Part shown: one piece after another, positions 24,685-58,920 of the stretch | How positions within the stretch are numbered: position 1 is the stretch's first letter | Layout of the letters: each line of letters opens with the position of its first letter | NCBI GenBank assembly: GCA_964512695.1 | Contig: CAZEJU010000001.1 | Span: 7,803 to 71,802, forward strand | Length of the DNA: 64,000 nt | Direction of reading: 5' to 3' | Origin: an uncultured Gammaproteobacteria bacterium | Lineage (GTDB): Bacteria; Patescibacteriota; Microgenomatia; Levybacterales; UBA12049 | Translations under genes and position numbers: made by a program | Notes under the pieces: model-generated | The model's database searches: none | What the model was told of the DNA's origin: nothing | The model's input: only the letters and a program-made list of their open reading frames with translations

Positions 24685-24794
24685 ATTCGACACTACAGAA
24701 ATAACATTTATGGGAATTAAGATTACCATATTAAAAAATAACAGAAAAATACCTCAATGCCTGGACTAAAGGAATCTCGCATTACCGGCTATTA

Positions 24795-25107: not shown

Positions 25108-25113
25108 ATTTAT

Positions 25114-28503: not shown

Positions 28504-28528
28504 GCACACATACTCTTAAGTTTAAATA

Positions 28529-28675: not shown

Positions 28676-28696
28676 ATGTTTTAAAAGGAGAAATAT

Positions 28697-31676: not shown

Positions 31677-31759
31677 ATTGGTATATTGCTAAACTGCTAA
31701 TTGTTACGTGAGAGTAACCATACAACAATACCCATATCAATAAATTTTCGCTACAAAAA

Positions 31760-32107: not shown

Positions 32108-32108
32108 A

Positions 32109-33269
32109 ATGGTAAAAACTATGAAAGAAGGAGTTATTATACAAGTTGATCCGAGAATACCAGAGCCATATATAACATATATCCGGCAACGAAATGGGAA
32201 TGTCGGCAGAGATATAGCAGATCACCTTGGCCTACCCTATGTAGGAGACAGTCAGGGAGTACAACGTGCAGCTGATTATTATCCTGTACTTGCCAGAACT
32301 GTCACCAGAGAACATGCAAGAGTATTAGGTGCAGAAAATACAAGAGATTTCTATGGTCTTGCAGTTGAAGATTTAAATGTTGTGGGTAAATCTATACTCC
32401 ATCCTTCTATAAGCAGAAGACATCCTTTATTTCATAGAGAACAATTCGCACGAAAAGTCTTAGGTCAAACCCTTCCTGGTATAACCGGTTTCTCTAAAGA
32501 AGATTTATTAGCAGGGTATGAAAATGGTTACGCTGGATCACTGGATCATGCTTTAGATTACGAGCAGTATGGATTACGTGTTAAACTTCCAAATGAATCC
32601 GACGGCGTAGGACAATTTACTATACAAAGCAAGGATGATCTGGTTACTCTTCTAGAAGCTATTGAGGATAAAGATATCCACGAACAAGGACTGGTTCTGG
32701 AAGCTGATGTACAGAAACCTGAGACTATATCAGTCGGATTCGCGAGAATCGGTGATGAACAATTAAGTTTCATAGCCCAACAAAAAGATGCACGTGTGTT
32801 AGTAGATCATAAGGGCAAAACAATAGAGCAGAATAGATATGGTGGGGCATACGTCGTTGTGGCAAAAGGCCCTTTACAGTTACTATGCCAAGCCACGGAA
32901 GCAACTTCGCGTGAGAGATCTGCTGTAGAAAAAACACTGGCGTTTCATGAAGCCTATCAACGCATCTATGATCCTTTAGCTTCGAGATTAAGTTTCGATG
33001 TCATTTTCGGAGAAGGGAAAAACGGTCTCCCACTTGCAGGAATAAGTGACATTACTGGTAGGCTAGGTGGAACGTGTCCAGCACTCATGCAAGCTGCTGA
33101 AGAGTTCAGGAAAAACCCTTCTATTCAAATGGTAGGAACAGAAGTATCTCTTAATTATACTCCCCATGTACGATTTCCCTATGAAGATGAAGCTAAGGTG
33201 TATGTAGACCACCCAACACTCAGACTTACAGCAAGAGTAAACTCAAAACACAGAAGACTCGCAGCATAG
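32109..33269 (+). CDS. ATP-grasp-like protein (386 aa from the ATG at 32109)
   Basis: GLRVKLPNESDGVGQFTIQSKDDLVTLLE.. and ..GLVLEADVQKPETISVGFARIG.. fit ATP-grasp central-domain strands. I rejected the ORF-track start (32028) because it overlaps the leader terminator. Confidence 0.4.
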   Translation: MVKTMKEGVIIQVDPRIPEPYITYIRQRNGNVGRDIADHLGLPYVGDSQGVQRAADYYPVLARTVTREHARVLGAENTRDFYGLAVEDLNVVGKSILHPSISRRHPLFHREQFARKVLGQTLPGITGFSKEDLLAGYENGYAGSLDHALDYEQYGLRVKLPNESDGVGQFTIQSKDDLVTLLEAIEDKDIHEQGLVLEADVQKPETISVGFARIGDEQLSFIAQQKDARVLVDHKGKTIEQNRYGGAYVVVAKGPLQLLCQATEATSRERSAVEKTLAFHEAYQRIYDPLASRLSFDVIFGEGKNGLPLAGISDITGRLGGTCPALMQAAEEFRKNPSIQMVGTEVSLNYTPHVRFPYEDEAKVYVDHPTLRLTARVNSKHRRLAA

Positions 33270-33278
33270 ACATGAATC

Positions 33279-33422
33279 TTGACATTACACATGGGCTATC
33301 CTATAATCATTTATATGATACGACAAGCAGTAAATTTCTTTTTCTTTTTTACCCCACTCGCGGGGAGGTAATTTCGTGATCACACGAAATACTCTATACC
33401 CCGCATAAGGCGGGGTTTTTTT
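33279..33422 (+). promoter_or_regulatory. Consensus promoter plus Phe-codon leader-peptide attenuator
   Basis: TTGACA(33279)-17-TATAAT(33302). Leader ORF 33315..33371 = MIRQAVNFFFFFTPLAGR, with its ATG only 7 nt after the -10 (leaderless). CCCC/GGGG (33352/33362) 1:2 hairpin. GCGGGG (33360) can pair with CCCCGC (33399), versus terminator CCCCGC-auaag-GCGGGG + U7 (33399..33422). Confidence 0.8.
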
Positions 33423-33435
33423 ATGGAGGAATTCT

Positions 33436-35136
33436 ATGGCAATGACTGAACAAGACATACTAAAAGGTACAATGAACGGCCGAGTTGATTCAGGTTTAAA
33501 GGCAACTGATAACACAGCAGTACCTTTAGGTGAACAATCTCATGGCGGCATAGTCCGAAATACCGATGGACTATGGTGGCTACCTGCCTCACCACATCGC
33601 GGAAGGGGTTTCGAATGGCAAGACTCAAAGGATCCTAGATATAACGCAACACATTTAAGTGAAGTTGGCTACCACCCTGAACCTCTAGAACCACAGAGAA
33701 CCGTAGAAGTATTAGCTGAACATTTACAAGAAAAAGTTGAAGGAAGAATTCCGGAAACAGAAACCCATGGAGTTGAAGTTGAAGGGACTACCTATGATCG
33801 AGAAGGCAATCTCTTAGCAATTCCTGTCGATCAGAAAACAAATCCCGAATTATTAGCTTCTACACATGAAGAAGCCACAAAACTGGAAAACGGACAGTAC
33901 CCGAGAAAACCATTTGAAATAGCTCGAGCAGTAGCCAGTGCAACCCAGCGGGGTATCGCAATCGCTGAAAATCATAGCGGAATACTTGTCCTCACAGAAG
34001 TACCAGAAGGTGGAACATTTCATGATGCTGAAAACAGTACATTTCCATATATAGTACGTCAACAAGGAAGAATTCGAAGACACGCATTAGCACACCTTGA
34101 TGAGATACCTGAAGAAACATGGGCTCTCTATCGACGTTACGGCGTAGATATTCGAGAACTACTGGAATCTAATAGACCGCTCAATTGGCCTACTCATGGA
34201 TTGCATCATCATGCCGGTGCGCCACAAATAGAAGGATTAGTCGACCCGAGAGCCGCACTGGTTATGGGAAAAATGCGTCAAACACTTTTTGCAAAATTAC
34301 TGCAATACCCAGCATTTAATAGCAGTAGATTATATGAAAAAGAAACTGATCTCCGCGGAGTCCGATCTGTCGCAAAACACGCGCTTGCTACAACAGTTAA
34401 TAATGATTTACCTGATAGTGCTGAAGAGCTAATGTGGGATGTGCAACGGGCAATGAGAGAGGGAGAAATCGCTACGCCTTCACGATATCCTTATAAAGGC
34501 CAACACGATGTCGTTCGATTTAGGATGGATGGAAAACATAAAACTGTCGAGTCTATTAAAGATCCTATGACACCTGACCTATTAACAGCGCTTCATCTCG
34601 TGTTCGGCAATCAACTCCTGGATACCATCGGCCAGCAAGCTCTCGTACAAGTAGGTGGAGATGAAAGCAAAGTTATGGGTTATTTACAATCTATACATCC
34701 TGAGCTTTTTGCCACATTGCCTTCATTAGGTCCTGAGTCATCACATAGTGCAGATATGCAGTTTAATAAAGCAGGGTATCTAGGAACATTCCGCGGGAAA
34801 ACTTATGCTGAGCTTATAAGAGATGCACGTGCTGTCGTGGAAGGGGTAGGCAAACATTATACAGCACTTGAGACACAAGCTAAAATTGTAAATCACGTAC
34901 TAGGATACCAAACAGATATTCCTCATCCACAGACTGATCTAGCAACATTTATGGGAATAAAAAATGGAGTTTACCAACCAAATAGTATGAGAGCAGGAAT
35001 TCTAACGGATTATAAAACGGGTATTCCTACAAATGAACTGTTAGTTGTCCAGGCTGAAGCAACGAAATTACAAGCTCAAGCTTTAGCACAAGTGAGAGAT
35101 GATAAAGATCTTCTCGAAGTGTATGGATTACAGTAA
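33436..35136 (+). CDS. GCS2-fold carboxylate-amine ligase-like protein, paralogue C (566 aa)
   Basis: HGVEVEGTTY, THGLHHHAGAP, GQHDVVRFRMDGKHKTVESIKDPM. GGAGG SD 6 nt upstream. Confidence 0.55.
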   Translation: MAMTEQDILKGTMNGRVDSGLKATDNTAVPLGEQSHGGIVRNTDGLWWLPASPHRGRGFEWQDSKDPRYNATHLSEVGYHPEPLEPQRTVEVLAEHLQEKVEGRIPETETHGVEVEGTTYDREGNLLAIPVDQKTNPELLASTHEEATKLENGQYPRKPFEIARAVASATQRGIAIAENHSGILVLTEVPEGGTFHDAENSTFPYIVRQQGRIRRHALAHLDEIPEETWALYRRYGVDIRELLESNRPLNWPTHGLHHHAGAPQIEGLVDPRAALVMGKMRQTLFAKLLQYPAFNSSRLYEKETDLRGVRSVAKHALATTVNNDLPDSAEELMWDVQRAMREGEIATPSRYPYKGQHDVVRFRMDGKHKTVESIKDPMTPDLLTALHLVFGNQLLDTIGQQALVQVGGDESKVMGYLQSIHPELFATLPSLGPESSHSADMQFNKAGYLGTFRGKTYAELIRDARAVVEGVGKHYTALETQAKIVNHVLGYQTDIPHPQTDLATFMGIKNGVYQPNSMRAGILTDYKTGIPTNELLVVQAEATKLQAQALAQVRDDKDLLEVYGLQ

Positions 35137-37296: not shown

Positions 37297-38289
37297 ATGA
37301 GAAACTTATTAGAATTAGGAATTTTCGAAACATACGGAAATGGTGGAGGAGCAATTACCAAAGATAGAGTATCTCCTCCTATTTATCCAGTAGATGCTAA
37401 TTTAGGTGAATGGAGGATACTAGCAACTGATCATGAAAGAGAATTCCCGGGCGAGCATCTCGAACGTGCTTTTGAAGTGATAAAGCAATGGCAGGAAGTA
37501 TTTCCTCGGGAAGATACCTGGATTAATCGTGCGTATGGTATTCCGTCACCGATTATTAAACTCGATGCAACAATTACTAATAATGAATTACAGGTGTATG
37601 AAGTAGAAGATAGACCAGCAGGAATGGGTTATAGCGAATTAATAAATCCTGACTTACGAACAAATTTTGCTGATATTGTATCTACTTGGCCAGATTTCCG
37701 AGTCGTCGTTTCTCCTCAAAGATCTGGAAATGACGATCATTTATGGGCAAAGCCAGCAGAAGCAGATTGGCATGGTCTAGTTCTCGTCCGGGCAGAACCG
37801 TCTGAAGAAGAATTCCATGCATTACAGCGAAGATCCATAAGTACTCTGCTTACAGAAGGAGACAAATCGTATGGTGAAAAAATGGGTTTATGGAAAAGAG
37901 TTCATACAGCAGATGAGATAGATTTTTCACAAGGTTTTGTCGTCAAGCCCACCCAAGGAAGCAAAGGGAATGGTGTGTATGTATCTTTACCGAAACAATA
38001 CATGAAAGAACATGGGATCGACCCAGGTAGAAATGGCGTAGCTACTGCAGGGAAAATACGAGGTGTAATCGATACTGCAGCAGCAAATGGAGGAGTCTTC
38101 GTACAACAATATCATCCTCCTATGGAAACAGGTATCCCGACCCATCCCTGGGCAGTAAACCGGTTATTCTTCGGGTATGATATGCAAAATGGAGAATGGA
38201 GATATATAGGGGGAACATGGAATGCTCGAAATAATTTGAAAATTCATGGAGCTAGTGATACATTAACTGGCCCGTTAAAAACGGTATAA
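37297..38289 (+). CDS. ATP-grasp-like ligase (330 aa)
   Basis: GFVVKPTQGSKGNGVYVSL (ATP-grasp K-P-x-x-G-S-x-G-x-G-V strand), ..VFVQQYHPP... Start set at the ATG abutting the terminator U-tract. Confidence 0.5.
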   Translation: MRNLLELGIFETYGNGGGAITKDRVSPPIYPVDANLGEWRILATDHEREFPGEHLERAFEVIKQWQEVFPREDTWINRAYGIPSPIIKLDATITNNELQVYEVEDRPAGMGYSELINPDLRTNFADIVSTWPDFRVVVSPQRSGNDDHLWAKPAEADWHGLVLVRAEPSEEEFHALQRRSISTLLTEGDKSYGEKMGLWKRVHTADEIDFSQGFVVKPTQGSKGNGVYVSLPKQYMKEHGIDPGRNGVATAGKIRGVIDTAAANGGVFVQQYHPPMETGIPTHPWAVNRLFFGYDMQNGEWRYIGGTWNARNNLKIHGASDTLTGPLKTV

Positions 38290-38346
38290 AAAAAATTGAT
38301 TAGATTTTACTTCACTTACCCTCGGTTCGTAAACGTAAATGCTCTC

Positions 38347-38492
38347 TTGACGTCCAAATAGATATAACTCTATAATACAAAGTGTTCTATATGAATATCA
38401 TGAATAACAATGGAGCAGTAAAGAAGAACCTCTCGTAAGAGGGGTCTTTCTGTTGTCTGCACAATAGTACCCCTTACAGAAGGGGTTTTTTT
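38347..38492 (+). promoter_or_regulatory. Promoter plus Asn-codon leader-peptide attenuator
   Basis: TTGACG(38347)-18-TATAAT(38371). Leader ORF 38391..38438 = MNIMNNNGAVKKNLS (5 Asn in 15 aa). CCUCU/AGAGG hairpin over the stop codon. GAGGGG (38439) can pair with CCCCUU (38470), versus terminator CCCCUU-acag-AAGGGG + U7 (38470..38492). Confidence 0.65.
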
Positions 38493-38615
38493 ATGGATTT
38501 TTTGCTGAACCAATAGTTCTACTTAGAAATCCAAATCCTCCAAAAAGCGCTCTTCGAGCCGCAGTTCAAATGAACTAAAGCGGAAAGGAAGCTTAGGAGG
38601 ACAAAGCTTTACATT

Positions 38616-39899
38616 ATGAAAGAAGGACTAAAAGTATTATCACACTCATCTATAGAGGAATATCTATTCGATACTGATGTCGAAGACCGATATTATATTC
38701 CGTGGCGTGCAGCCGCAGAAGCAGCAGCAAGAATCGAACTAGGACAACAAGTTTTGACAATCCTTCCAAAACGTGAAGCTTTTAACGAATACCTCACCCT
38801 TTTACAAATGAAATTACTGGGAGGAAGAAGTATTCCAACGCTGTTTACACCTGATGAAGATTATCTTATGGATACTGATATTAAAAAATATCTTATGGAT
38901 ACTCTTCGTGGCAGATTTAACAGAAGTACCACTATTCATCCCTATCAAGCAACACCTGAATTTTATGATTGGGCGGGGGAGTTAGAACAGAAAGGCGTTA
39001 AAATTTACGCAGATAGAAAACGCAAAGACTTACGTGACTGGTGGGGACATAAAGGAGCATATCATCGATGGATAGATGATCTCGATACTCCCACTCAATT
39101 TGAAGGATTACATTTACCAATACCTCGAGGATACGTGGCTCAAAACCATGGAGAATTACTTGTAGCGAAAAAACTTCTACCAACTGACACTGTTGTGGCA
39201 AAACCAATTTTCGGAGCTGGTGGATTTCAAATAGAGTTCTTAGACGACGATAATATCGATACATATGAATGGCCTACCGACCCCACAACGGAAAAACCCA
39301 TGCCAGTTGCTGTACAAGAAAGACTAAGAATTGGTCGAGATGAATTCGGCGAACGTGTTTTTTCCTACCAGTTTGAGGGCCCACAACCAATGGGACGATT
39401 AACACGACAAATTATGGATCAGGAAACTGGGAAAGTCTGGAGTGGGAATAGAGTACCAGCAGATGTTACACCTGAGTTTGAACGAAGAGCAAAGGATGTA
39501 GTTCATACTTTAGTCATGAAAACAAAACCAAAAGGAGACGGGGGAGTCGATATAGCAGATGTAGATGGAGAACCAGTAATCATCGAAGTAAACGGAGGAA
39601 GGCCAACTGGCGCACATATGCCGAAACGATTTCAACAAGCCTTCGCGCCTGAAGCTCCACATTTCGTATTTCAGAAAGTAGAACCAAACGGATATTCACC
39701 ATTCGATATTTGGGATAGACTCGAAGGAGGAAACTTGCCTCGCACGAATGAAACTCTAGTATTTCAGCGTGAAAGACAACGCGGGGTTTTTCCATTAGTT
39801 TGGTTACCGAACTCTTGGGGAATGCTTGCAAGCTTCGGAGGATCATTCGAAGAAGCAAATAATCAGTTACTCGCAGCTCGTGATAGAATAGGCGTATGA
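38616..39899 (+). CDS. ATP-grasp-like ligase (427 aa)
   Basis: VVAKPIFGAGGFQIEFL, ..GGVDIADVDGEPVIIEVNGGRPTG.. (ATP-grasp C-terminal E-x-N region). AGGAGG SD. Confidence 0.5.
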   Translation: MKEGLKVLSHSSIEEYLFDTDVEDRYYIPWRAAAEAAARIELGQQVLTILPKREAFNEYLTLLQMKLLGGRSIPTLFTPDEDYLMDTDIKKYLMDTLRGRFNRSTTIHPYQATPEFYDWAGELEQKGVKIYADRKRKDLRDWWGHKGAYHRWIDDLDTPTQFEGLHLPIPRGYVAQNHGELLVAKKLLPTDTVVAKPIFGAGGFQIEFLDDDNIDTYEWPTDPTTEKPMPVAVQERLRIGRDEFGERVFSYQFEGPQPMGRLTRQIMDQETGKVWSGNRVPADVTPEFERRAKDVVHTLVMKTKPKGDGGVDIADVDGEPVIIEVNGGRPTGAHMPKRFQQAFAPEAPHFVFQKVEPNGYSPFDIWDRLEGGNLPRTNETLVFQRERQRGVFPLVWLPNSWGMLASFGGSFEEANNQLLAARDRIGV

Positions 39900-40966
39900 C
39901 TGAGAAAAGGGTAGTACAAATATTTTTCGATTTAGTAAAAATTGACAGCCCTTCTGGACATGAAGAGAACGTTTTAGAGTATATAGAAGCATATTGCAAA
40001 AAACTCTCACTAAATACACAGAGGGATTCTTATGGAAACCTCATCGTTAAAAAAGAAGGAGTAGGTGAACCACTACTTCTCTGTTCACATGCCGATACAG
40101 TAGAACCAGGGAAAAATATTCAACCACGAATAGAGAACGGAATTATAAAAAGCGATGGTACGACGATACTTGGTGCTGATAATAAATCGTCTATTGCAGC
40201 GATTCTCGAGGCTGTGAAACAATTAGTTGAAGAAAAAAAACACCATAGGCCTCTAGAGCTTGTGTTTACAAAATCTGAAGAAGTTGCTAGCTGGGGAGCA
40301 GTATATCTGGACTACAAACAACTTCAAGCAAAAGAAGGATATACGATAGATAACGCAAATCCTGTAGGAACAATTGTCTACGCGTCTCCTTTTTACTATC
40401 GTTTCGATATTACAGTATTCGGTAAAGATGCCCATGCTTCAAGACCGCATGAAGGAATTCATGCTTTAAAAATCGCTGCAAGCGCCATTCATAAAATAAA
40501 ACTTGGAAAAATTGATACAAATACACTTGCCAATATCGGCATGATCCAATCAGGCCATGTACGCAACACAATTCCAGGTTCAGTAGTGCTTATGGGAGAA
40601 GTACGAAGCTATTCCGATGAGAAAGCTCAAAGGTACTTAAACAAAATTATTGATACATTTAGAAAAACTGCAGAAAAAACGGGAGGATCTATAACGTACG
40701 AAACGCTGAAAGAAAATGCTGGGTATATATATAAAACAAATGATCCCTTTGTAAAAAAAACGATGCAGATTATGAAAAAGATTGGAGTAGAAACGAACTT
40801 AATTAAAACTCTGGGCTGTGCCGATGCAAATGTGATCCAAGAGCATGGAATTAAAATGCTCGACCTGGGCGACGGCTCACGCAGAGCGCATACACTAAAG
40901 GAGTCAATACCGGTAGCACAGTTACAAAGAGTCGTTGAGCTAGTATTAGCTCTTGCTGGAGCATAA
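39896..40966 (+). CDS. M20-family metallopeptidase (second copy, peptidase T-like)
   Basis: SPSGHE, SHADTVEPG, LGADNKSSIA, KDAHASRPHEGIHA. ATGA start/stop overlap with the upstream ATP-grasp gene. Paralogue of 30591..31676. Confidence 0.75.
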   Translation: MTEKRVVQIFFDLVKIDSPSGHEENVLEYIEAYCKKLSLNTQRDSYGNLIVKKEGVGEPLLLCSHADTVEPGKNIQPRIENGIIKSDGTTILGADNKSSIAAILEAVKQLVEEKKHHRPLELVFTKSEEVASWGAVYLDYKQLQAKEGYTIDNANPVGTIVYASPFYYRFDITVFGKDAHASRPHEGIHALKIAASAIHKIKLGKIDTNTLANIGMIQSGHVRNTIPGSVVLMGEVRSYSDEKAQRYLNKIIDTFRKTAEKTGGSITYETLKENAGYIYKTNDPFVKKTMQIMKKIGVETNLIKTLGCADANVIQEHGIKMLDLGDGSRRAHTLKESIPVAQLQRVVELVLALAGA

Positions 40967-41085
40967 AACCATACACTCTTCACCCTCCCTTTTCGAATTT
41001 ACGTGAACACTTCCCGAGGTTTGAATAGAAACCAACCTCCCAGGTTGGCAACTAGTAATTTGAGGACTTGCTTAAGGGAGCGTTT

Positions 41086-41204
41086 ATGCGATATACTTTC
41101 TTCAACATGAGTAAATCAGTTTTCGGAACTACCACTACAACAACCCTTTCCTAAGGGAGGTTGGCGTGGTATTATTTAACAACCTCCTTAATAGGAGGTT
41201 TTTT
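41086..41204 (+). promoter_or_regulatory. Thr-codon leader-peptide attenuator
   Basis: AGGGAG SD, then leader ORF 41086..41154 = MRYTFFNMSKSVFGTTTTTTLS (6 consecutive Thr codons). CCCUU/AAGGG 1:2 hairpin. AAGGGAGGUUG (41153) pairs with CAACCUCCUU (41180), versus terminator CCUCCU-uaau-AGGAGG + U6 (41183..41204). The terminator is nearly identical to that of the Met leader. Confidence 0.8.
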
Positions 41205-41322
41205 ATTGGGGAGAACACGTATCCGTCAGCTGAGGGATACCACGATAGAATCCCATGGATTATTGCATGGAATCCTATCGCCCCGGTGTACGTCAGGACT
41301 GAAAGCTGACCACAAATAACAT

Positions 41323-43107
41323 ATGACAAACGAACAAGAACTAAAAATAGGAGGACAAAAATCAGCGACGAAAGTTGATTTCGCTCATGCTGAGCATCCT
41401 TTAACCCATGCACGTCTTTATGAAGCAGTAGAAGAACGACGTGGTACCGTAGGTCCTGTAGGAGATGTTCCCAGAGCATATATAAGGGACTCTGCAACTG
41501 CGGCAATTATAGTAAGCACACCTTCAAAAGAGGTGGTTGCTGCTGTTCGATCACCTCTATGGATTCCTAGTGGTGTACGAAATGGAAGAGTAGAATTTGG
41601 TGGAAGACCAGATAAAGATCATATCGAATTTTCTTACTTACGTGAAACTGATTGGGAGTATGTAAAAGAATCTGCGAGGAAAAGATTAGACGCACTTAAA
41701 AAAGCCACAAAACTTAACGAATTTGTTGCTGAGCATGGAGGCTATCTCGGTATAGGAACAGAGCCGGAAGCATTTCTCCTTCATGAAGATGGCAGTGTCG
41801 TACAGATAAACGCTGGAGAGTCATTTTTAGGCCAGAGAGAAGACGCTCTGCCACCGATAGCGACACCCAGAGAGTATGCCCGCGCACGAGCGGAACTTAT
41901 TCAAAATCGAAGACAGCAATTACAGGCTGGTCAAATTGCCTTCGACGGCTCAGTTCGACCTACGGGGAAGATGAGCGAAACAAGAATAACCCAAGAAGGT
42001 GATGAAGCAATATATAATGTAGCTATCACGCAAGCGCTCCATACACGATACACCCATTGTGCAGATCCATTAACACGACAAATCATGGATCAGCTTGCTA
42101 AAACAGAAAACTATAGAGATTTTGACGAAATCTATAATCATGCTTCAACGATAACATACTGGGGTCCTCCCTCTGCATCGCATGCAGCTATAGGAATGCA
42201 TCAAAGACGCGAAAATGGGACAACCTTTGTACCAGAATGGGAAGCAGTAGCTCATGCAGATGTCATAAATAGCGATTTCGCAACTGCTGATGAACTACTG
42301 ATGATGTCAACGCCAGTCATATTCGGAGAACAACCTCAAGTTTTACATAAAGGTACATGGAGAAAACCACGCGACTATCGTCATTTTATGCGACATGTCG
42401 TTGACACTACCTATCCAGCACCTTTTGTCGGCTCGCCAGAAGCATTACGAGCAAATGTTACCGACAGTATACTCTCCGGCAGATCGCACACACTTGATAG
42501 ATCTGCATATACTGCAGATGTACATGGTTTATTAGTCCCTAACTATCATGGAAGAGTACGGATTAGACAAAAGGTTGATGTTACTCATAAAGGAGAAATT
42601 AAACAATCATGCCGTATAGAAGAAACAGGATGTTCACAGTCCGCATCTTTACCTGATGAATTGGCAAGAAATGCACTTATGCAGCTTAGAGCTGTTGCTG
42701 TCGACGAAGCCCTCGCAGCAGGTATGCATCCCTCTGAATTCTATAAAGAGAAATATCCGCATATGACAACTTGGCAAAAGCAGCAAGATATCGTACTCCA
42801 TGCAAATCTCTATGGTTTCCGACATCCTTTACCATCTGCTGTGATAATGGAAAATATTAGGCTTGTACGAGATATCGGTAAGAGATATCCTGTACTCGGT
42901 CTTCAAGCCGTACTCGCAGAAACACGCTTGAGAAATTTATTTGATGATCCAGCACGCTCTTTAGAAGTTTATGAACAAAAACCTATTGGTCCATTTAGCG
43001 AAGTTCTCCAGAATGAATTACATAATGGTACTTCACCTGTAGAACTCGCTCAAAAAGTAGCCGCTTACCAGGATACAGTAGCGGAAAAGATATTAAGAGT
43101 TCCATAG
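41323..43107 (+). CDS. GCS2-fold carboxylate-amine ligase-like protein, paralogue D (594 aa)
   Basis: YLGIGTEPEAFLLHEDG, SASHAAIGMHQ, NYHGRVRIRQKV...SCRIEETGCSQSA. Lies between the Thr attenuator and thrS. Confidence 0.55.
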   Translation: MTNEQELKIGGQKSATKVDFAHAEHPLTHARLYEAVEERRGTVGPVGDVPRAYIRDSATAAIIVSTPSKEVVAAVRSPLWIPSGVRNGRVEFGGRPDKDHIEFSYLRETDWEYVKESARKRLDALKKATKLNEFVAEHGGYLGIGTEPEAFLLHEDGSVVQINAGESFLGQREDALPPIATPREYARARAELIQNRRQQLQAGQIAFDGSVRPTGKMSETRITQEGDEAIYNVAITQALHTRYTHCADPLTRQIMDQLAKTENYRDFDEIYNHASTITYWGPPSASHAAIGMHQRRENGTTFVPEWEAVAHADVINSDFATADELLMMSTPVIFGEQPQVLHKGTWRKPRDYRHFMRHVVDTTYPAPFVGSPEALRANVTDSILSGRSHTLDRSAYTADVHGLLVPNYHGRVRIRQKVDVTHKGEIKQSCRIEETGCSQSASLPDELARNALMQLRAVAVDEALAAGMHPSEFYKEKYPHMTTWQKQQDIVLHANLYGFRHPLPSAVIMENIRLVRDIGKRYPVLGLQAVLAETRLRNLFDDPARSLEVYEQKPIGPFSEVLQNELHNGTSPVELAQKVAAYQDTVAEKILRVP

Positions 43108-43197: not shown

Positions 43198-44937
43198 ATG
43201 GATAATAACGAAAAATTACAAAACTTACGACACTCAACAGCGCATTTACTTGCGGCTGCAGTCATGGAATTATGGCCTGATACGAAAAGAACAATAGGTC
43301 CTGCGATAGAAACTGGATTTTACTATGACTTCGATTTCGTAAAACCAATCTCAGTGGAAGACCTTCCTAAAATCGAACAAAAAATGCGGGAAATTCTTAA
43401 GTCATGGACAGGATTTATCAAAGAAGAAGTCTCAATAGAAGAAGCAAAAAAGAAAGTAGCAGGAAATGAATATAAACTCGAACTTATAGAAGAATTCGCG
43501 AAAGATAATAAAACCCTTACATTCTATACATCAGGTAATTATGAAGATTTATGTAAAGGCGGTCATGTAGAAAATCCAAAAATGGAAATCGGAGCATTTA
43601 AACTCCTCTCTCTCGCAGGCGCGTACTGGCGGGGAGACGAGAAAAACAAGATGTTAACTCGCATCTATGGTACTGCTTTTCCGACGAAACAAGAATTAGA
43701 AGAGTACCTAACCATGCTTGAGGAAGCGAAAAAACGAGACCATAAAAAATTGGGGAAGGAACTAGATCTCTTTATTTTTTCTCCTCTTGTAGGAGGGGGA
43801 CTTGCACTCTGGACACCCCGGGGGACAATTATTCGTGAAGAATTAGATAATTTTATTTGGCATATAAGAAAAAAGTTCGGTTATCAGAAAGTAACAATTC
43901 CTCATATTACAAAAAAAGATCTCTATGAGACATCCGGACACTGGGAAAAATTTGCAAATGAACTATTTAAAATCCAAACCCGTGAAGAAGATTTATTTGC
44001 GATGAAGCCTATGAATTGTCCTCACCATACACAACTCTACGCTTATAAACCTCGAAGCTACCGAGAGTTGCCACTACGTTATTCAGAAACAACTATGTGC
44101 TATAGAGACGAGCAAAGCGGAGAACTAGCTGGTTTATCCCGAGTTCGTGCTTTTACACAAGACGATGCGCATGTTTTTCTCAGAAAATCGCAAATAGAAG
44201 AAGAATTCTTACGAACTTGGGATATCGTAGATGATTTCTATAAAACTTTTGGCTTTGAGCTGAGAGTAAGGCTCTCACTTCATGATCCTGAACATATGGA
44301 AAAGTATCTAGGCGATGCGGGAATTTGGAAGGATGCTGAATCAAAAATTCGGGCGGTAGCAGAAAAAAGAAAAGCTAATACTTTTGAAGGAATTGGTGAA
44401 GCTGCAATGTATGGACCTAAACTAGACTTTATGACAAAAGATGCTCTTGGACGTGAATGGCAAGTAGCTACCATTCAACTTGATTTAAATCAACCAAAAC
44501 GCTTTGGCTTAACATGTATTAATGAAGAAGGAAAACAAGAAGACATCGTCATGATGCATTGTGCGGTTATGGGATCAATCGAAAGATTTGCTTCGATTTT
44601 AATCGAACATTACGCGGGAGCATTTCCACTCTGGCTTGCGCCAGTTCAAATCGAACTTTTACCAATAGCTGATCGCCATACAGAATATGCCCAATCAGTG
44701 TATAATCAGCTATCTGCAGCCAATATTCGTGTAAATCTTAATACCGAAAAAGCAACACTCCAGGCAAAAATACGTGAGGCTACTTTACAAAAAGTACCAT
44801 TTATGGGTATAATAGGCGATAAGGAAATTGCTGCAGAAGCGATTTCAGTCCGAACAAGAGAAGGAAAAGATGTCGGCCAACAACAGGTTGGTACATTTAT
44901 AACGGAGTTACAGGAAAAAATTGATAAAAAAGAATAG
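43198..44937 (+). CDS. thrS: Threonyl-tRNA synthetase (no N-terminal TGS domain)
   Basis: HSTAHLLAAAV editing-domain motif, class II motifs (..FRDEQSGELAGLSRVRAFTQDDAH.., ..GSIERF..) and an anticodon-binding C-terminus. TATAGT sits 7 nt before the ATG and there is no SD. Confidence 0.9.
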   Translation: MDNNEKLQNLRHSTAHLLAAAVMELWPDTKRTIGPAIETGFYYDFDFVKPISVEDLPKIEQKMREILKSWTGFIKEEVSIEEAKKKVAGNEYKLELIEEFAKDNKTLTFYTSGNYEDLCKGGHVENPKMEIGAFKLLSLAGAYWRGDEKNKMLTRIYGTAFPTKQELEEYLTMLEEAKKRDHKKLGKELDLFIFSPLVGGGLALWTPRGTIIREELDNFIWHIRKKFGYQKVTIPHITKKDLYETSGHWEKFANELFKIQTREEDLFAMKPMNCPHHTQLYAYKPRSYRELPLRYSETTMCYRDEQSGELAGLSRVRAFTQDDAHVFLRKSQIEEEFLRTWDIVDDFYKTFGFELRVRLSLHDPEHMEKYLGDAGIWKDAESKIRAVAEKRKANTFEGIGEAAMYGPKLDFMTKDALGREWQVATIQLDLNQPKRFGLTCINEEGKQEDIVMMHCAVMGSIERFASILIEHYAGAFPLWLAPVQIELLPIADRHTEYAQSVYNQLSAANIRVNLNTEKATLQAKIREATLQKVPFMGIIGDKEIAAEAISVRTREGKDVGQQQVGTFITELQEKIDKKE

Positions 44938-54419: not shown

Positions 54420-55760
54420 CTACTTTACTATTGGGATGAAAGCCGACAGTTGTAACCCATTGATATAATTTTGCTTTTTTTCATCTTTTTTTCCTTCTCT
54501 TCCTAACGTGTTTAATTTTATTAACAAATATTTCTTTTGCAGAAGTTCAGCAAGTTTCGCGAAACGTTTTAGATTATTCCAACTCTCAAAAACTTTTTTC
54601 GGATTTTGAAACTCTGATGCCAGTGCAGAAACTTCTGGTGTATCTTTAGCTTCCTCTAGTAATTGTATGCAAGTCTCCCAATTCGTTAGGATTGTTTGAG
54701 CAATAGGAATAAAAAAGTCATAAGAGGTATATTCAGCTACCTCATCATCATCGCTCAACTTATACCTTCCACGGTCAAGTGAAACTTGATGGAGAATATT
54801 TGCCCAGAATTCATCAGGTGTCAGACCACTGACTTCATATAGCTTTAAGACATCTGGAAATGCATGGATTGCATCATGGGTACTTATATCTTGTTCAAAT
54901 GTTGCTTCATGAGTTTTTGGATCAAGGTGATAGCGTCGTATATATTTAAACATTCTATCATAACCAAATATTTCTCCTGCTGCTCTGAAATTAGTAATGT
55001 CTAACTCCTTCCATTCATTGATCCATGATTCTAAGTTTTTTGATCCACTAGTTATTGCATCAAATGCTCTTTTAAAATCTTCTGAAGATCTTAAGTTAAG
55101 AATGTCAATTCCCGCTTTCTTTACAAACTCTGCATCTATAGGAGATATACCGACTTTATGTGCATAATCAATTTCACTCCTTGTTAAACCAGAAGGTTCA
55201 ATAATTTTATTTAACAAAGCGTAAGCATGATCAAACGGTAAGACATATTCACAAATTGCATAAAGATCTGAGAAGGAATTAACGTTATATGATGCAAAAA
55301 GAGATTGAAGCTGCGGTGGCATATCCTTTTTATATTCTTCTAATAAACCTTTTGAATCGATATCTTTGAACACCTGCATGATCTGACCATTTAGATCGGA
55401 CTCTCTTCCGTAGTTTGTTATTAAGAAATTGGAAAGTACGTTTAAAGGGGGAGGTGTCTGGGAGTGATCATAAATATATTTATAAAAATCAAACCTTTTA
55501 ACTTGTCTAGACCCAGTTCTATTATCATCAGTTAATAATTCATAGGTTTTAGCTGCCTCATCTGGTGTAAGAACTAGGCCATTATATTGAGTTTGTAATT
55601 CTTCTACTAACTTTGTATTATCTTCTCCTTCGACTGTGGAAAATTTTCTAAAAAGATCTTCGAATTTTGCTTTTCTTTCTATTTCAGCAGGATTAACTTC
55701 TACAACACTATTAGTATCTGATATCTGATATCTGATATCTGATATCGACAATATCTTCAT
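54420..55760 (-). CDS. Hypothetical protein, upstream ORF of the frameshift-linked pair (446 aa)
   Basis: Long ORF with no recognised family. It ends 17 codons after the A7 tract. Confidence 0.5.
   Translation of the reverse strand: MKILSISDIRYQISDTNSVVEVNPAEIERKAKFEDLFRKFSTVEGEDNTKLVEELQTQYNGLVLTPDEAAKTYELLTDDNRTGSRQVKRFDFYKYIYDHSQTPPPLNVLSNFLITNYGRESDLNGQIMQVFKDIDSKGLLEEYKKDMPPQLQSLFASYNVNSFSDLYAICEYVLPFDHAYALLNKIIEPSGLTRSEIDYAHKVGISPIDAEFVKKAGIDILNLRSSEDFKRAFDAITSGSKNLESWINEWKELDITNFRAAGEIFGYDRMFKYIRRYHLDPKTHEATFEQDISTHDAIHAFPDVLKLYEVSGLTPDEFWANILHQVSLDRGRYKLSDDDEVAEYTSYDFFIPIAQTILTNWETCIQLLEEAKDTPEVSALASEFQNPKKVFESWNNLKRFAKLAELLQKKYLLIKLNTLGREGKKDEKKQNYINGLQLSAFIPIVK
54474..54480 (-). 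promoter_or_regulatory. Candidate -1 frameshift heptamer A_AAA_AAG
   Basis: Zero-frame codons GAA AAA AAG of the 446-aa ORF. The -1 frame has TGA immediately upstream (54483..54481) and is open from 54480 into the 526-aa ORF. Confidence 0.45.
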
Positions 55761-55810: not shown

Positions 55811-56331
55811 TTGACGTACTATAGGGAATATAGTATCATTATTTAACAATTTATAAAGGCTATGACGAAGTCAAAGTAGTTTTCGCAGAGTGACACCAGA
55901 GAGAAGACGTCGCTGCAAGATCTTCCGTATCTTCGAAAATGAATTACGCTTCTGAGCTGTATGCCGAATCCGTTAACCGATGGATAGGCAGAACCGGGTT
56001 CGCACCGTGATAGCGAAAGAATGTGTCGCAGAAGAAGTGGAGCATTCGAAAATAAGCGTTTATCGTATTACTTCGAATCCCTTCATAAGGGATTTTTTAT
56101 TGCTAAGATAAGCGAAACCGAGGTGGTACCACGGAGAAAAATTAAAAGGTAAAAGGTAAAAATTGTATAAGGAAAGATAGTAGTAATTTTACTTTGGACT
56201 TTTGACTTTACACTTTTAACTTTCTTGTTCCGTCCTTGAGAATCATTATTGTTCGAGTGAAGTGAGAGTTATTTTTTACACATAAACTTCTCATTTTGTT
56301 CGAAGAATAGTATTTCTGGGACGGTTTTTTT
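55811..56331 (+). promoter_or_regulatory. Promoter plus T-box leader, probable Tyr (UAC) specifier, with unusually large inserts
   Basis: TTGACG(55811)-17-TATCAT. Stem I base GCUAUGACGAAG/CUUCUGAGC with AGUA...GAA flank and UAC+G at 55945..48. AGAGA box. F-box CCGUUA (55970). T-box GAGGUGGUACCACGG (56119..34). CGAGG-UGGUACC-ACGG pairs with CCGU-CCUUG (56230..38). Terminator arm CCGUCC/GGGACGG + U7 (56230..56331). Confidence 0.6.
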
Positions 56332-57711
56332 ATGAAAGACAATGTACTATCAACTGAGCAAGAACAAGAAAACGAGTTAGAGATGCATGAAGCTTTCCAC
56401 AAGCAAGTACATGCAGTTCTAGAATCTGAAGACAGATTCAGAAAAGCTGAAAGAACAACGAGAATTGGCCTTGAAGCCGAATATAGTGTCATAAATGCAA
56501 CGTGTGATCAAGTAGACCAAACAGTCAGAGATCAAATTATTGAAGACAATAGAGACTTCGCTACCCAAGAGTTAGGGGCAGCACAAATTGAATTACGAAC
56601 TGACCCTATTATCCTTTCTGATGGAGGAATCTGGCAGGTATTTGACCAGATGGCATCTAGAGATGACGCTATAAGGAATGCGGCACATAGACGGGGTGCG
56701 CGTATACTGAGAAGCGGCACAAACCCCTTAGTCGATCTTCATGACATACTAAGAACTGATAAACCAAAATACCGGCAAGTACCTGATTTCCATAATAGAA
56801 AGAGAAAGTTTGGCACAGACACAACAATTGGCAATGGAAAAAGAGTTGATGTAGGAGACGCTGCTGTAGTTGCACTCTTAAACTCTTTGCAGACGAATAT
56901 AGAAGCTGTAGATTTCGCAGATGCCACAGATAAATTAAACAGATCGTTAATGATTGGACCGTATGTTACTGCAGTCAGTTCCGGGGCACGGTATATCGCT
57001 CATCAAGACGCAGGCTTAGCTGATTTACGAATTCTTGCTTGGGAAACGAGTCATGACACGAGAACTGACTCAGAGAGAACACTAGGTGAAAAAACCAGAG
57101 TCGGACTGCCAGCACGATACTATACTGATGTAAAGGATTACTTTACACAAGTGGGATCATATCCATTTATTCTCCATAATCCAGAGGCAGCACTTCAAAT
57201 AGGAATCGGTCTTCATTGGAGAGATACACGGTTAAAAGTAATAGGGGACAGCCTTGTGGTAGAATTCCGTCCCATATCTGCACAGCCAACATCTGCAGAA
57301 AATGTAGCTTCTGCTTTATTTTATACAGGAAGACTACATTGGTCTCAAGCCACAAACGAACCATTGCTGCCGTTTGATAAAGTAGAACATAATAGAAAAC
57401 AAGCACTACACGAAGGCCCTAGAGGGACTATGTACTATACAGAAGACAATAATGTACAGCGATATAAAGCTCCAGAAATCATAAAACTAGAATTAGCGAG
57501 AGCAAAACATGGATTAGAGATGATAGGTTGTCACCCAAAAGATATTGAACCATTCTTTTCAGTTCTAGAAAAAAATCTCGATGAAGGTACACCTGCTGAA
57601 CGGATGCACAATGTCGTATCACGTCTCACAGAAAATGTTTCTGAGAAAGATAAAAAAGAGGCTACACATGATGCTCTTATCACAGCCATTCAAGTCTTAC
57701 AATTCGTATGA
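56332..57711 (+). CDS. GCS2-family carboxylate-amine ligase-like protein, paralogue E (459 aa, the most canonical copy)
   Basis: RIGLEAEYSVIN, GLHWRDTRLKVIGDSLVVEFRPISAQPTSAENVASALFYTG matches the GCS2/YbdK signature closely. Confidence 0.7.
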   Translation: MKDNVLSTEQEQENELEMHEAFHKQVHAVLESEDRFRKAERTTRIGLEAEYSVINATCDQVDQTVRDQIIEDNRDFATQELGAAQIELRTDPIILSDGGIWQVFDQMASRDDAIRNAAHRRGARILRSGTNPLVDLHDILRTDKPKYRQVPDFHNRKRKFGTDTTIGNGKRVDVGDAAVVALLNSLQTNIEAVDFADATDKLNRSLMIGPYVTAVSSGARYIAHQDAGLADLRILAWETSHDTRTDSERTLGEKTRVGLPARYYTDVKDYFTQVGSYPFILHNPEAALQIGIGLHWRDTRLKVIGDSLVVEFRPISAQPTSAENVASALFYTGRLHWSQATNEPLLPFDKVEHNRKQALHEGPRGTMYYTEDNNVQRYKAPEIIKLELARAKHGLEMIGCHPKDIEPFFSVLEKNLDEGTPAERMHNVVSRLTENVSEKDKKEATHDALITAIQVLQFV

Positions 57712-57723
57712 TATACTTTCGAT

Positions 57724-58920
57724 ATGGATAAAATAGAAGAAGTACTCACCAGAGGAGTTGCAAACATTATTCCAGGAAAACAAGTCCTAAAGGACGTTTT
57801 AACTTCAGGTAGAAAAATAAATATCTATCTCGGTATCGATCCTACAGCACCGAGAATCCATCTCGGTCATGCAGTTTCTATTCGAAAACTACAAAACTTC
57901 GTCGACTTAGGTCATAAAGTAACATTTCTTATTGGTAATTTTACTTCGCTTATCGGCGATACCTCTGATAAGGATTCAGAAAGGCCCATTCTCACAGAAA
58001 AAGAAATAGAACAAAACTTCCAGACATATAAAGAACAAGCAGAGAAGTTACTTGATTTTTCAAAAGTACACATAGTACGTAACAGAGATTGGTTAAATAC
58101 ATTAACATTTGCCGAAATTGTACGATTAACACAAAACTTTTCAGTTAATGACTTTATCAGTAGAGAGTTAATTAGAAAACGTTTAGATGAAGGCAAACGT
58201 GTACGACTCGATGAGGTACTCTATCCAATTATGCAGGGATATGACAGTTATTTTATGGATACAGATCTACAGATAGGGGGTACTGATCAAACGTTTAATA
58301 TGCAAGCTGGGAGAACATTACAAAAAGTGATGAGAAATAAAGAATCTTTTGTCTTATCTACTGTTTTCCTAACAGGAACAGATGGTCGAAAAATGAGTAA
58401 ATCGTGGGGGAATGCAATCTGGATAAGCGATTCAGCTGAAGATATGTTTGCGAAAGTAATGGCTGTCAGAGATGACCTTCTCCTAGAATATTTCTTATTA
58501 GCTACAAATGTCCCCTTACACCAGGTCGAGGCTATAAAAGAACGGTTACAATCCGGTGCAAATCCTATGGAAATTAAAAAAGAACTCGCTTTTATAATTG
58601 TCGAGGAATTACATGATAAAACTGCCGCGGTAGCAGCTCAAGAAAAATTCGAAAAAACTGTACAGAACAGAGAATTACCCGAAGAGATACCTGTGGTCAT
58701 TATTCCGGAAACACTACAATCAGAAATTGCTATTGCAGACGTTTTAAGCACACTGGGATTAGTAGAAAGTAAATCAGAAGCCAAACGTTTAGTAGATCAA
58801 GGTGGTGTGGAAATAGATGGACAAAAAGTAACGAATACAAATGAAATAATTAGTGTAAAAGATGATATGATAATAAAAGTAGGAAAGAGAAGAATTGTTA
58901 AACTGACAACGACGAAATAA
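57724..58920 (+). CDS. tyrS: Tyrosyl-tRNA synthetase
   Basis: GIDPTAPRIHLGH (HIGH), KMSKS, and a C-terminal S4-like domain (..SKSEAKRLVDQGGVEIDGQKV..). Starts 12 nt after paralogue E. Confidence 0.85.
   Translation: MDKIEEVLTRGVANIIPGKQVLKDVLTSGRKINIYLGIDPTAPRIHLGHAVSIRKLQNFVDLGHKVTFLIGNFTSLIGDTSDKDSERPILTEKEIEQNFQTYKEQAEKLLDFSKVHIVRNRDWLNTLTFAEIVRLTQNFSVNDFISRELIRKRLDEGKRVRLDEVLYPIMQGYDSYFMDTDLQIGGTDQTFNMQAGRTLQKVMRNKESFVLSTVFLTGTDGRKMSKSWGNAIWISDSAEDMFAKVMAVRDDLLLEYFLLATNVPLHQVEAIKERLQSGANPMEIKKELAFIIVEELHDKTAAVAAQEKFEKTVQNRELPEEIPVVIIPETLQSEIAIADVLSTLGLVESKSEAKRLVDQGGVEIDGQKVTNTNEIISVKDDMIIKVGKRRIVKLTTTK

Follow-up and report, generated by a model that had tools for sequence, protein, structure and literature searches.

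A predicted tRNA-Tyr-responsive T-box leader preceding a GCS2-like ligase gene and tyrS in a CPR/Patescibacteria-type genome

The locus described here occupies positions 55,811 to 58,920 of a 64-kb stretch of contig CAZEJU010000001.1 from a CPR (Candidate Phyla Radiation)/Patescibacteria-type genome; the whole 64-kb stretch is referred to as the window, leader coordinates are those of its plus strand, and labels of the type L001 to L101 denote relative loci that were fetched for comparison. The locus consists of a sigma-70-type promoter, a leader of 480 nt between this promoter and the next open reading frame (ORF), a gene for a 459-aa GCS2-like carboxylate-amine ligase, and, 12 nt downstream of it, tyrS, which encodes a bacterial-type tyrosyl-tRNA synthetase (TyrRS). 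The coordinates of all features are collected in the table. It is proposed that the leader is a transcription-attenuating T-box for tRNA-Tyr, which would control the GCS2/YbdK-fold ligase and, via read-through, tyrS; from the sequence and its relatives we consider this reading likely.

Table. Features of the leader, the ligase gene and tyrS, in the order in which they occur in the window
Feature	Coordinates	Strand	Basis or remark
Sigma-70-type promoter TTGACG-17-TATCAT	55811..55839	+	10/12 consensus matches; predicted transcription start ~55846
T-box Stem I	55853..55957	+	RF00230 alignment; alignment with L021 and L096
K-turn base	55859-55870 pairing with 55949-55957	+	RF00230 alignment
AGUA	55875-55878	+	Stem I
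AGAGA box	55898-55902	+	Stem I
Distal loop of Stem I	55911-55919	+	RF00230 alignment
Specifier-loop 3' side GAAUUACG (GAA-U-UAC-G)	55941-55948	+	Placed on consensus GAAauuca by the model
Specifier codon UAC (Tyr), then G55948	55945..55947	+	Model codon position; one position before loop end
Stem II, GUAUGCCGAA ... GGAUAGGCAG, loop enlarged	55959..55991	+	RF00230 alignment
Stem IIA/B pseudoknot region, CGG/CCG	55994..56017	+	RF00230 alignment
IIB pairing, loop UUCGC with GCGAA	55999-56003 with 56013-56017	+	Read from the sequence
F-box equivalent CCGUGA, one change from CCGUUA	56005-56010	+	RF00230 alignment
Extra linker hairpin, used by the covariance model as 'Stem III'	56019..56047	+	RF00230 alignment
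Long Stem III, ΔG -18.3	56056..56114; outer helix 56056-56064 with 56107-56114	+	
Stem III tip hairpin and U-run	56075-56095; U-run 56093-56098	+	Called terminator-like by scan
T-box core CGAGG-UGGUACC-ACGG	56119..56134	+	Fold and strand comparison
A1 5' strand CGAGG; 7-nt bulge UGGUACC; A2 5' strand ACGG	56119-56123; 56124-56130; 56131-56134	+	
A2 insertion, 95 nt, long A/U-rich arm	56135..56229	+	Folding; Tandem Repeats Finder (TRF)
Shared strand CCGU-CCUUG (A2 3' and A1 3' strands, or terminator 5' strand)	56230..56238	+	
Intrinsic terminator, CCGUCCU with GGGACGG, then U7	56230..56331; 56230-56236 with 56318-56324; U7 56325-56331	+	
GCS2-like carboxylate-amine ligase, 459 aa	56332..57711	+	PF04107, PDB profile matches, AlphaFold2 fold, synteny, leaders
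Extended -10 TGATATACT, ends 6 nt before tyrS ATG, overlaps ligase stop codon	57709..57717	+	
tyrS, bacterial-type TyrRS, 398 aa, C-terminal S4 domain	57724..58920	+	Pfam

In a permissive covariance-model scan the T-box family RF00230 matches positions 55853-56072 with 58.2 bits (E 4.7e-12 locally and 4.5e-10 for the whole window), and the alignment gives high posterior probabilities to the K-turn base, the AGUA/GAA specifier loop, the AGAGA box, Stem II and the IIA/B region. All core T-box elements are intact in this alignment and stand in canonical order. An earlier note on this DNA, made from the letters alone, had recognized the classical T-box elements in the leader, and most of them are present where it placed them, including the K-turn-like base of Stem I and the AGAGA box. 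Some corrections were needed: the hexamer CCGUUA at 55970-55975, which the note took for the F-box, sits in an insertion within the Stem II loop, and the F-box of the alignment is CCGUGA. Towards its 3' end the model forces the antiterminator onto wrong bases, the real T-box core lying further downstream at 56119-56134. Related leaders score 60.2 (L021), 76.4 (L049), 90.0 (L096) and 68.8 bits (L041) against RF00230; the leaders of the window and L021 are also linked directly by nhmmer over ~270 nt (E 2e-11), and at the place of the IIB pairing L021 has GCGC with GCGC, a different yet complementary pair.

The specifier was read in the earlier note as UAC followed by a purine, with UUA (Leu) kept as an alternative. 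The model reads UAC followed by G, and the same register is found in the homologous leaders of L021 (GAA-A-UAC-C), L096 (GAA-U-UAC-C) and L041 (AAAUACC in the terminal loop), UAC being the sole triplet common in register to all four. UUA lies one position out of register and is not shared in register by the homologous leaders, which rules it out; by this comparison the window T-box is read as specific for Tyr, not Leu. The suggestion that the UGGU bulge fits an A73 tRNA such as tRNA-Tyr agrees with the tRNA-Tyr(GUA) genes adjoining the L021 and L041 leaders, both of which have A73.

The expression platform offers the two mutually exclusive pairings of a T-box. In the antiterminator, A1 (CGAGG) pairs with CCUUG at 56234-56238 and A2 (ACGG) with CCGU at 56230-56233; in the terminator, most of the same strand is taken up by GGGACGG, and the U7 that follows runs directly into the ligase start codon. 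The long-range CCGU-CCUUG pairing of the earlier note is supported by covariation across six platforms, namely those of the window, L021, L049, L096 and L041 and a second T-box-like platform at window position 32020. With the A1/A2 strands picked by eye and the loops excised for a fixed spacer, 100% of the cells are paired and four of the eight pairs show compensatory changes, a covariation score reached by 0 of 500 shuffles; sliding the 3' strand by 1-3 columns lowers pairing to 21-50%. With a ΔG of -37.6 (z -5.67), the terminator folds better than every one of 200 shuffles; the canonical antiterminator has a ΔG of -21.1. For the whole platform the terminator form reaches -57.0 kcal/mol, against -48.0 kcal/mol with the antiterminator enforced, and therefore the terminator is the default state, as expected of a T-box. 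All five related leaders likewise end in a terminator made of a GC-rich hairpin closed at its base and a U-run.

Both halves of this platform are enlarged. The earlier note described an antiterminator loop of about 95 nt and a terminator loop of about 83 nt; the first length stands and a large insert is indeed present in the terminator, but neither is an open loop. The A2 insertion is a self-pairing arm (103 nt counting the helix A2 base pairs, ΔG -17.3), in which two complementary 7-nt repeat arrays, found by TRF at 56143-56161 and 56187-56223 and corresponding to the heptamer repeats seen earlier, pair with each other. The arm folds on its own and leaves A1, the bulge and the base of A2 unchanged. 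In the terminator, the 79 nt of the extension (56239-56317) pair almost perfectly into a long hairpin whose apical loop measures 14 nt, and they keep the terminator stabler than the lengthened antiterminator. The comparison of leaders with and without inserts that the note had called for could be made with L029, whose ligase is 70% identical and whose available fragment starts inside the leader: it retains the 3' repeat array and CCGUCCUUGA and ends in a compact terminator of 18 bp. The terminators at this place are compact in L029, L021, L096 and L049, as in all other related leaders. Since L029 keeps the arm and has a compact terminator, the A2 arm appears to be the older, conserved feature and the terminator extension specific to the window lineage. 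Neither insert is repeated elsewhere in the window, and an origin as copies of a mobile or repeated element was rejected, the other matches being only short A/T-rich coding stretches (33 nt in pheS and 25 nt in recG). As a precedent, helix A2 of the staphylococcal glyS T-boxes also carries an insertion, stem Sa, which is functional and tunes read-through (PMC9177973).

Upstream of the T-box core lies the long Stem III, which was described earlier as looking like a terminator itself, and the terminator scan agrees in calling its tip hairpin and U-run. A GC-rich hairpin followed by 5-6 U, 20-35 nt before the T-box core, is also present in L021, L049 and L041, and is absent from the same place in L096; because it recurs in four of five related leaders, we regard it as a feature rather than as damage. 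For the glyQS T-box, Stem III is described as causing a probable pause that gives the tRNA time to bind (PMC6197855, citing Grundy and Henkin 2004), and T-box pause sites are also treated in PMC13001445. By analogy, the CPR hairpin and U-run probably represent a strong version of this pause element; they may also act as a leaky first terminator.

The 459-aa product belongs to the GCS2 family by several lines of evidence. PF04107 matches residues 46-239 with 29.2 bits (cutoff 21), and a profile search against PDB returns plant glutamate-cysteine ligase (GCL) and YbdK. The AlphaFold2 model (pLDDT 95.4, pTM 0.93) has 1R8G and 1TT4 as its best Foldseek matches (E ~2e-15, TM 0.78-0.80 normalised to the YbdK target), followed by 2GWC and 3IG5; the Foldseek probability for these YbdK/GCL folds is 1.00, at an identity of only ~15%. 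In a comparison of 31 homologues G46, E48, E50, E80, E87, E311 and R313 do not vary, and the protein has the invariant GxExE and E/R motifs; the acidic residues among them are candidates for metal/ATP binding. A total of 167 homologues were detected; among the 120 listed, all but one carry PF04107, and the named ones are labelled Saccharibacteria, Levybacteria or Patescibacteria. A search of metagenome contigs for the lineage-specific DNA pattern gave 0 matches.

The loci of this ligase family are strongly associated with tyrosine. We fetched 28 genomic and 69 metagenomic loci, which collapse to 79 non-redundant groups. TyrRS genes are found in the flanks of 25 of the 79 (17 bacterial-type and 8 archaeal-type), where fewer than one is expected (~0.4, from 437 kb of total flank and an assumed one tyrS per ~1-Mb genome). 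A TyrRS-like paralogue of ~300 aa occurs in the flanks of 11 loci and prephenate dehydratase in those of 8, and five loci carry tRNA-Tyr, which accounts for 5 of the 11 tRNA genes seen. Three lineages have a Tyr T-box in front of an operon that contains the ligase; they are represented by the window together with L029, by L021 and by L096. In L021 the order is T-box, tRNA-Tyr, an AstE/AspA-like gene and the ligase, with tyrS upstream and outside T-box control; in L096 a prephenate dehydratase gene comes before the T-box, which directly precedes the ligase.

Ligase genes without a T-box are preceded in at least five lineages by leader ORFs rich in Tyr codons, with runs of the form YYYYY, YYYY or YYY..Y. 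Examples are MIYYYYYTLV... in L018 (start at 3773), ...VAYYYYYTLV... in L082 (1348), ...VAYYYYLAL... in L081 (3751), ...STYYYYSNA... in L088 (3733) and ...TTYYYYLLF... in L052 (688), together with ...QFS[F/S]YYYQLLY... in L001, L008, L035, L045 and L046 (3842 in L001, 3824 in L046). Fourteen such matches were obtained on the forward strand and none in the reverse-complement control, and in each case a GC-rich hairpin and a U-run separate the leader ORF from the ligase gene, whose start they closely precede. The lineages counted are L018/L082, L081, L088, L052 and the L001/L008/L035/L046 group. In L018, L082 and L088 the putative Tyr attenuator stands before the ligase and TyrRS is encoded on the other strand. 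As read from these leaders, two unrelated mechanisms for sensing tRNA-Tyr charging converge on the ligase family, and the ligase, not tyrS, is the conserved regulatory target; the earlier proposal that the first regulated gene is the GCS2-family protein rather than tyrS is strongly reinforced by such leaders in many lineages, including loci without tyrS downstream. The ligase is accordingly placed, on comparative grounds, in a tyrosine (aromatic amino acid) shortage regulon widespread in CPR bacteria. Its presumed substrate is tyrosine itself or one of its direct precursors or derivatives, and its presumed effect is to improve tyrosine supply.

Other features were noted at these loci. Two tandem GCS2-like paralogues with a T-box between them occupy L049 1-2243. 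A small 'FFFF' ORF in L058 was rejected as a leader peptide, as it lies 380 nt upstream and is without a terminator. In two unrelated loci (L021 2593-3040 and L041 5486-5841) a Tyr T-box stands directly before a tRNA-Tyr(GUA) gene and so appears to control transcription of the gene for its own ligand, an arrangement of which no report was found in the literature searched. The L041 T-box has an ultrashort Stem I (GGAG-AAAUACC-CUCC, in which 74 model positions are reduced to 5 nt), yet it has an intrinsic terminator. Further downstream, its operon encodes a DUF554 membrane protein, a class I/II aminotransferase and an archaeal-type TyrRS (7647-8741); this TyrRS is matched by the tRNA-Tyr, with its C1-G72 pair and a short variable arm of the archaeal/eukaryotic type. 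Archaeal-type TyrRS is also encoded beside the ligase in L001, L005, L007 and L008.

The ~300-aa protein is distantly similar to the TyrRS catalytic domain (PF00579, E 0.003, a sub-cutoff match), for example in L016 at 5367-6290; it is found in L004, L015, L016, L030, L031, L034, L040, L058, L071, L074 and L094, and operons containing it run ligase, MR/MLE, GATase, ~300-aa protein, TyrRS. In many loci the GCS2-like gene is preceded by that for another protein of ~260 aa, designated C3, with a weak Amidoligase_2 match. Upstream of C3, L054 (3025), L057 (3002) and L068 (2958) have small ORFs that encode runs of Asn (e.g. MCNLYTTNNNMNLYKNTNF...).

The tyrS product has the class I TyrRS architecture, with matches to PF00579 (227.5 bits), PF01479 (41 bits) and PF22421 (31 bits). 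The earlier note pointed out that tyrS starts 12 nt after the ligase without a Shine-Dalgarno (SD) sequence. The spacing is correct, and the same 12-nt junction is found in L029, but the missing SD is not special, for an SD-like motif precedes only 7 of the 47 window genes. Instead, a -10-like hexamer ends 4-12 nt before the start of 23 of the 47, compared with 6.7% at random positions, so leaderless mRNAs appear to be the rule in the window. The 9-mer TGATATACT occurs three times in the window, at 15205, 51855 and 57709, each time 6 nt before an ATG (of the genes at 15220 and 51870 and of tyrS), and it is kept in L029 where the flanking bases differ. The threonyl counterpart thrS has TGTTATAGT 7 nt upstream of its start. 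Thus tyrS and thrS probably each have their own leaderless promoter, and the T-box may add to tyrS expression without being its sole control; the earlier reading of T-box, ligase and tyrS as one unit is modified to this extent. The leaders would act first on the ligase genes.

The sequence and its relatives show which RNA elements and alternative pairings are present, what the specifier is, which genes and folds are involved and how they are linked to tyrosine; on this basis the following course of events can be inferred. Stem I would bind the tRNA-Tyr anticodon through the specifier UAC, the Stem III tip hairpin and U-run serving as a programmed pause that gives the tRNA time before the decision point. 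If the tRNA is uncharged, its 3' ACCA would pair with UGGU in the bulge and stabilize the antiterminator together with its A2 arm; CCGUCCU would thereby be kept from the long terminator hairpin (56230-56324) and its U7, and polymerase would read into the ligase gene. Charged tRNA could not make the ACCA-UGGU contact, and the much stabler terminator would form. Read-through would extend into tyrS, where the T-box would boost rather than solely set TyrRS synthesis.

A number of observations weigh against this interpretation. The earlier note proposed a covariance-model check, which did return a match, but the 58.2 bits lie under the Rfam gathering threshold of 93 for RF00230; a default scan at that threshold reports only tRNAs in the window and no T-box, and the permissive scan was needed. 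We ascribe the low score to the two insertions, the 95-nt A2 arm and the 79-nt terminator extension, which the model cannot span, so that it misplaces the antiterminator. The antiterminator segment alone folds no better than shuffles (z -0.37), which is usual where tRNA is required to hold a structure together, and in the minimum-energy fold computed without constraints part of the UGG bulge is paired. The hairpin and U-run upstream of the decision point resemble a terminator and could end transcription regardless of tRNA. None of the window's eight tRNA genes is a tRNA-Tyr. In L049 both the model alignment and the positional rule of TBDB give the specifier as UUC (Phe); UAC occurs in the loop, but this leader was rejected as a Tyr T-box, and the link of the family may be to aromatic amino acids, with some members responding to Phe, rather than to tyrosine alone. 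Finally, the genes that accompany the ligase in its relatives (a C26-type hydrolase, an MR/MLE enzyme and an AstE/AspA-type deacylase) are absent from the 64-kb window.

Taken together, the sub-threshold score, the insertions in A2 and the terminator, the shuffle-level antiterminator, the hairpin and U6 before the T-box core and the -10 element of tyrS might indicate a decaying relic, with the ligase expressed at a fixed low level and tyrS transcribed only from its own promoter. We think this improbable: the core elements are all intact and ordered, the A2 insertion is self-contained and does not alter A1, the bulge or the base of A2, and the repeat arm and shared strand have been kept in L029 although the ligases are only 70% identical. 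The hairpin and U-run recur in related leaders, the terminator extension preserves the advantage of the terminator over the lengthened antiterminator, and staphylococci have a functional insertion at the same place (PMC9177973).

That the T-box exists for tyrS, as in Bacillus, and that the ligase is a passenger without a functional tie to tyrosine would be in keeping with the standing of tyrS as a classical T-box target, with the 12 nt separating the two genes and with the absence from the window of the ligase partner genes seen in relatives. We give this explanation very little weight, for the Tyr T-box of L021 stands before tRNA-Tyr, a deacylase-like gene and the ligase, with tyrS outside its control, that of L096 stands directly before the ligase, and at least five lineages have Tyr-codon attenuators before the ligase, loci with TyrRS on the other strand (L018, L082 and L088) among them; tyrS moreover carries a conserved putative promoter of its own. 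It is also very unlikely that the switch is mainly translational, the 3' strand of the terminator sequestering the ribosome-binding region of the ligase. Such T-boxes are known in Actinobacteria (PMC7778990, PMC11297988), the U7 abuts the ligase ATG, and in L029 the 3' strand of the hairpin, GGAGGGG, is a good SD ~10 nt before the ATG. The corresponding strand in the window, however, is GGGACGG, which is not an SD, SD sequences are used by only the small minority of window genes given above, and a GC-rich hairpin followed by U7 is the signature of intrinsic termination, found in all five related leaders. The two modes are not mutually exclusive. A transcription-attenuating T-box thus remains the reading we prefer for the window leader.

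A second ligase unit in the window is linked to threonine. It consists of a leader (41067-41207), a gene for a 594-aa protein (41323-43107) and thrS (43198-44937). The leader ORF MSKSVFGTTTTTTLS (or MRYTFFNMSKSVFGTTTTTTLS from the first ATG) includes six Thr codons in a row; alternative hairpins and the terminator AACCUCCUUAAUAGGAGGUU with U6 come after it. In L101 the leader is conserved as MSKSIIITTTTTTLS, with synonymous changes in the Thr codons. RF00230 finds no T-box in 40900-41500, upstream of this unit, and from its sequence the leader is read as a ribosome-mediated threonine attenuator. The 594-aa protein has no Pfam match; three homologues were found by word index and ~50 cluster representatives in an exhaustive search. 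The earlier note spoke of ligase paralogues linked to their cognate aminoacyl-tRNA synthetases. This holds at the level of the fold, the AlphaFold2 model (pLDDT 89.9, pTM 0.91) being closest to YbdK (1TT4, 1R8G) and then to gamma-glutamylcysteine synthetase (gamma-GCS), but the sequence similarity to the 459-aa protein is not significant: BLASTP gives only a 37-residue C-terminal match (E 0.009), and hhalign gives probabilities of 0.5% and 3.4%, though with the GxExE...E motif aligned. By sequence the two are not recognizable as paralogues, and only the fold search connects them. A 584-aa homologue of the Thr-unit ligase (25114-26868; BLASTP 1.5e-38) lies behind a 432-nt leader (24684-25114), whose terminator CCUCUCUUUACGAGAGG with U7 abuts the start codon; neither an ORF with a run of one amino acid nor a match to an Rfam family was recognized in this leader.

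Further units of this kind were observed. The segment 31760-32108, before a DUF3182 gene (32109-33269), contains a promoter and an expression platform that resembles that of a T-box (CAAGG-UGGCACC-GUCC...GGAC-CCUUG), against which a terminator (CCCUUGUAAAUAAC...GUUGUUUACAAGGG and U7) would compete. RF00230 gives no match in 31700-32130 (E up to 1), so Stem I would be non-canonical or absent; the UGGC would fit a G73 tRNA, and UGG triplets are present in an upstream hairpin loop. At 33269-33436, five Phe codons are present in the leader ORF MIRQAVNFFFFFTPLAGR; behind it comes the terminator CCCCGCAUAAGGCGGGG with U7, which abuts the start of the gene (33436-35136) for a 566-aa GxExE protein without a Pfam match; a homologue of the latter (36% identity) in the distant relative L100 lies behind the Phe-run leader MITASTSFGFFFFFTPQMAG and a terminator (6797-6957). 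At 28503-28697 the leader ORF MQHTFNSIIVVLLVTH and a terminator precede the gene for a 619-aa GxExE protein (28697-30556), again without a Pfam match, and at 4840-5001 of L100 the Ile/Val/Leu-run leader MKFRVLSVIILVLLITA and a terminator precede a member of the U594 family; to judge from their codons, both leaders look like branched-chain amino-acid attenuators. The leader ORF MNIMNNNGAVKKNLS with the terminator CCCCUUACAGAAGGGG and U7 (38289-38616) stands before genes for an ATP-grasp_3 protein (38616-39899) and an M20 peptidase (39896-40966), which is 37% identical to a second M20 peptidase at 30591-31676. Just upstream of the Tyr unit, a perfect 7-nt tandem repeat (TATCTGA x 4.6, 55715-55746) lies within codons 5-16 of a divergently transcribed minus-strand ORF of 446 aa (54420-55760) without a Pfam match; as a 7-nt unit is not divisible by three, each copy gained or lost would change the reading frame, which makes the repeat a candidate phase-variation site.

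The sensors before the Thr, Phe and branched-chain ligases of the window suggest a general and unrecognized way of coping with amino-acid shortage in reduced symbionts. We put forward, as a tentative scheme that is possible but remains on the doubtful side, that CPR bacteria carry ligases of the gamma-GCS fold or ATP-grasp type, each for one amino acid and induced by shortage of the matching charged tRNA, which together with hydrolases and an epimerase form an ATP-driven acquisition route. The set may include the GCS2-like protein for Tyr, the 594-aa protein for Thr, the 566-aa protein for Phe, and the 619-aa protein and the L100 U594-family member for Ile/Val/Leu, and the partners may be peptidase C26, AstE/AspA-type and M20 hydrolases and sometimes an MR/MLE epimerase. 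In organisms unable to make amino acids, such a route may conjugate its substrate, convert or trap it, and then release it. A T-box or attenuator specific for one amino acid almost always controls genes that serve to supply or charge it; the switch therefore serves as a functional label, which turns a 'glutamate-cysteine ligase family protein' into a testable hypothesis with a named substrate class. The tyrosine ties of the ligase family point to an undescribed pathway of amino-acid supply. With scores of 58-90 bits against a cutoff of 93, T-boxes of CPR/Patescibacteria are missed by routine annotation, and no paper linking T-boxes, leader-peptide attenuators or this ligase family with CPR was found in the literature searched, a statement that holds for that literature only.

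The tyrS leader of Bacillus subtilis is the founding transcriptional Tyr T-box of RF00230. The window leader shares with it the order of elements from Stem I and the K-turn to the UGGN antiterminator and terminator, the specifier UAC, a UGGU bulge for A73 and a cognate tyrS downstream. It differs in its CPR/Patescibacteria-type host, its sub-cutoff score, the ligase as first gene, the F-box CCGUGA, the A2 arm, the terminator extension, the U-run touching the start codon and the putative leaderless promoter of tyrS. Like stem Sa of staphylococcal glyS (PMC9177973), the A2 arm is a lineage-specific insertion that leaves the bulge and A1 intact; unlike it, it has an unrelated sequence made of two complementary 7-nt arrays and is accompanied by a separate insertion in the terminator. 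The ultrashort-Stem-I (class II) T-boxes of Actinobacteria (PMC7778990, PMC11297988) resemble L041 in having the specifier UAC in the terminal loop of a truncated Stem I, whereas L041 ends in an intrinsic terminator instead of an SD sequestrator and Stem I of the window is full-length.

The ligase has the fold, the PF04107 match and the GxExE and E/R motifs of YbdK (1R8G from E. coli, 1TT4 from Salmonella) and of the plant-type GCL 2GWC. It differs in its low identity to these proteins (~15%), in belonging to a family specific to CPR and some DPANN-labelled metagenome-assembled genomes, and in standing behind a predicted tRNA-Tyr sensor and clustering with TyrRS and tRNA-Tyr, with no glutathione context seen. 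To our knowledge, neither control by tRNA-Tyr charging nor clustering with TyrRS or tRNA-Tyr is known for any GCS2 member. Leader-peptide attenuators are familiar from the thr, pheA/pheST and ilv leaders of E. coli, which resemble those of the ligase families in their short ORFs with Tyr, Thr, Phe or Ile/Val/Leu runs, their alternative hairpins and their terminator; the CPR cases differ in controlling ligase genes rather than biosynthetic operons, and the Tyr unit of the window uses a T-box. Routes that conjugate, convert and deconjugate a substrate are exemplified by the D-to-L pathway of the Geobacillus N-succinylamino-acid racemase and by gamma-glutamylation through PuuA/PuuD. The likeness is one of analogy only: in relatives the ligase adjoins an MR/MLE enzyme and a class-I GATase/peptidase-C26, or an AstE/AspA-type deacylase, and in the window two M20 peptidases lie near other ligases and such partners are not beside the Tyr ligase. 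Judged by its neighbours in other genomes, the ligase may conjugate a compound that is then converted and released. The T-box itself is of a known kind; what sets this one apart is its occurrence in CPR, its sub-threshold score, the A2 arm, the lengthened terminator, the terminator-like Stem III and the target gene.

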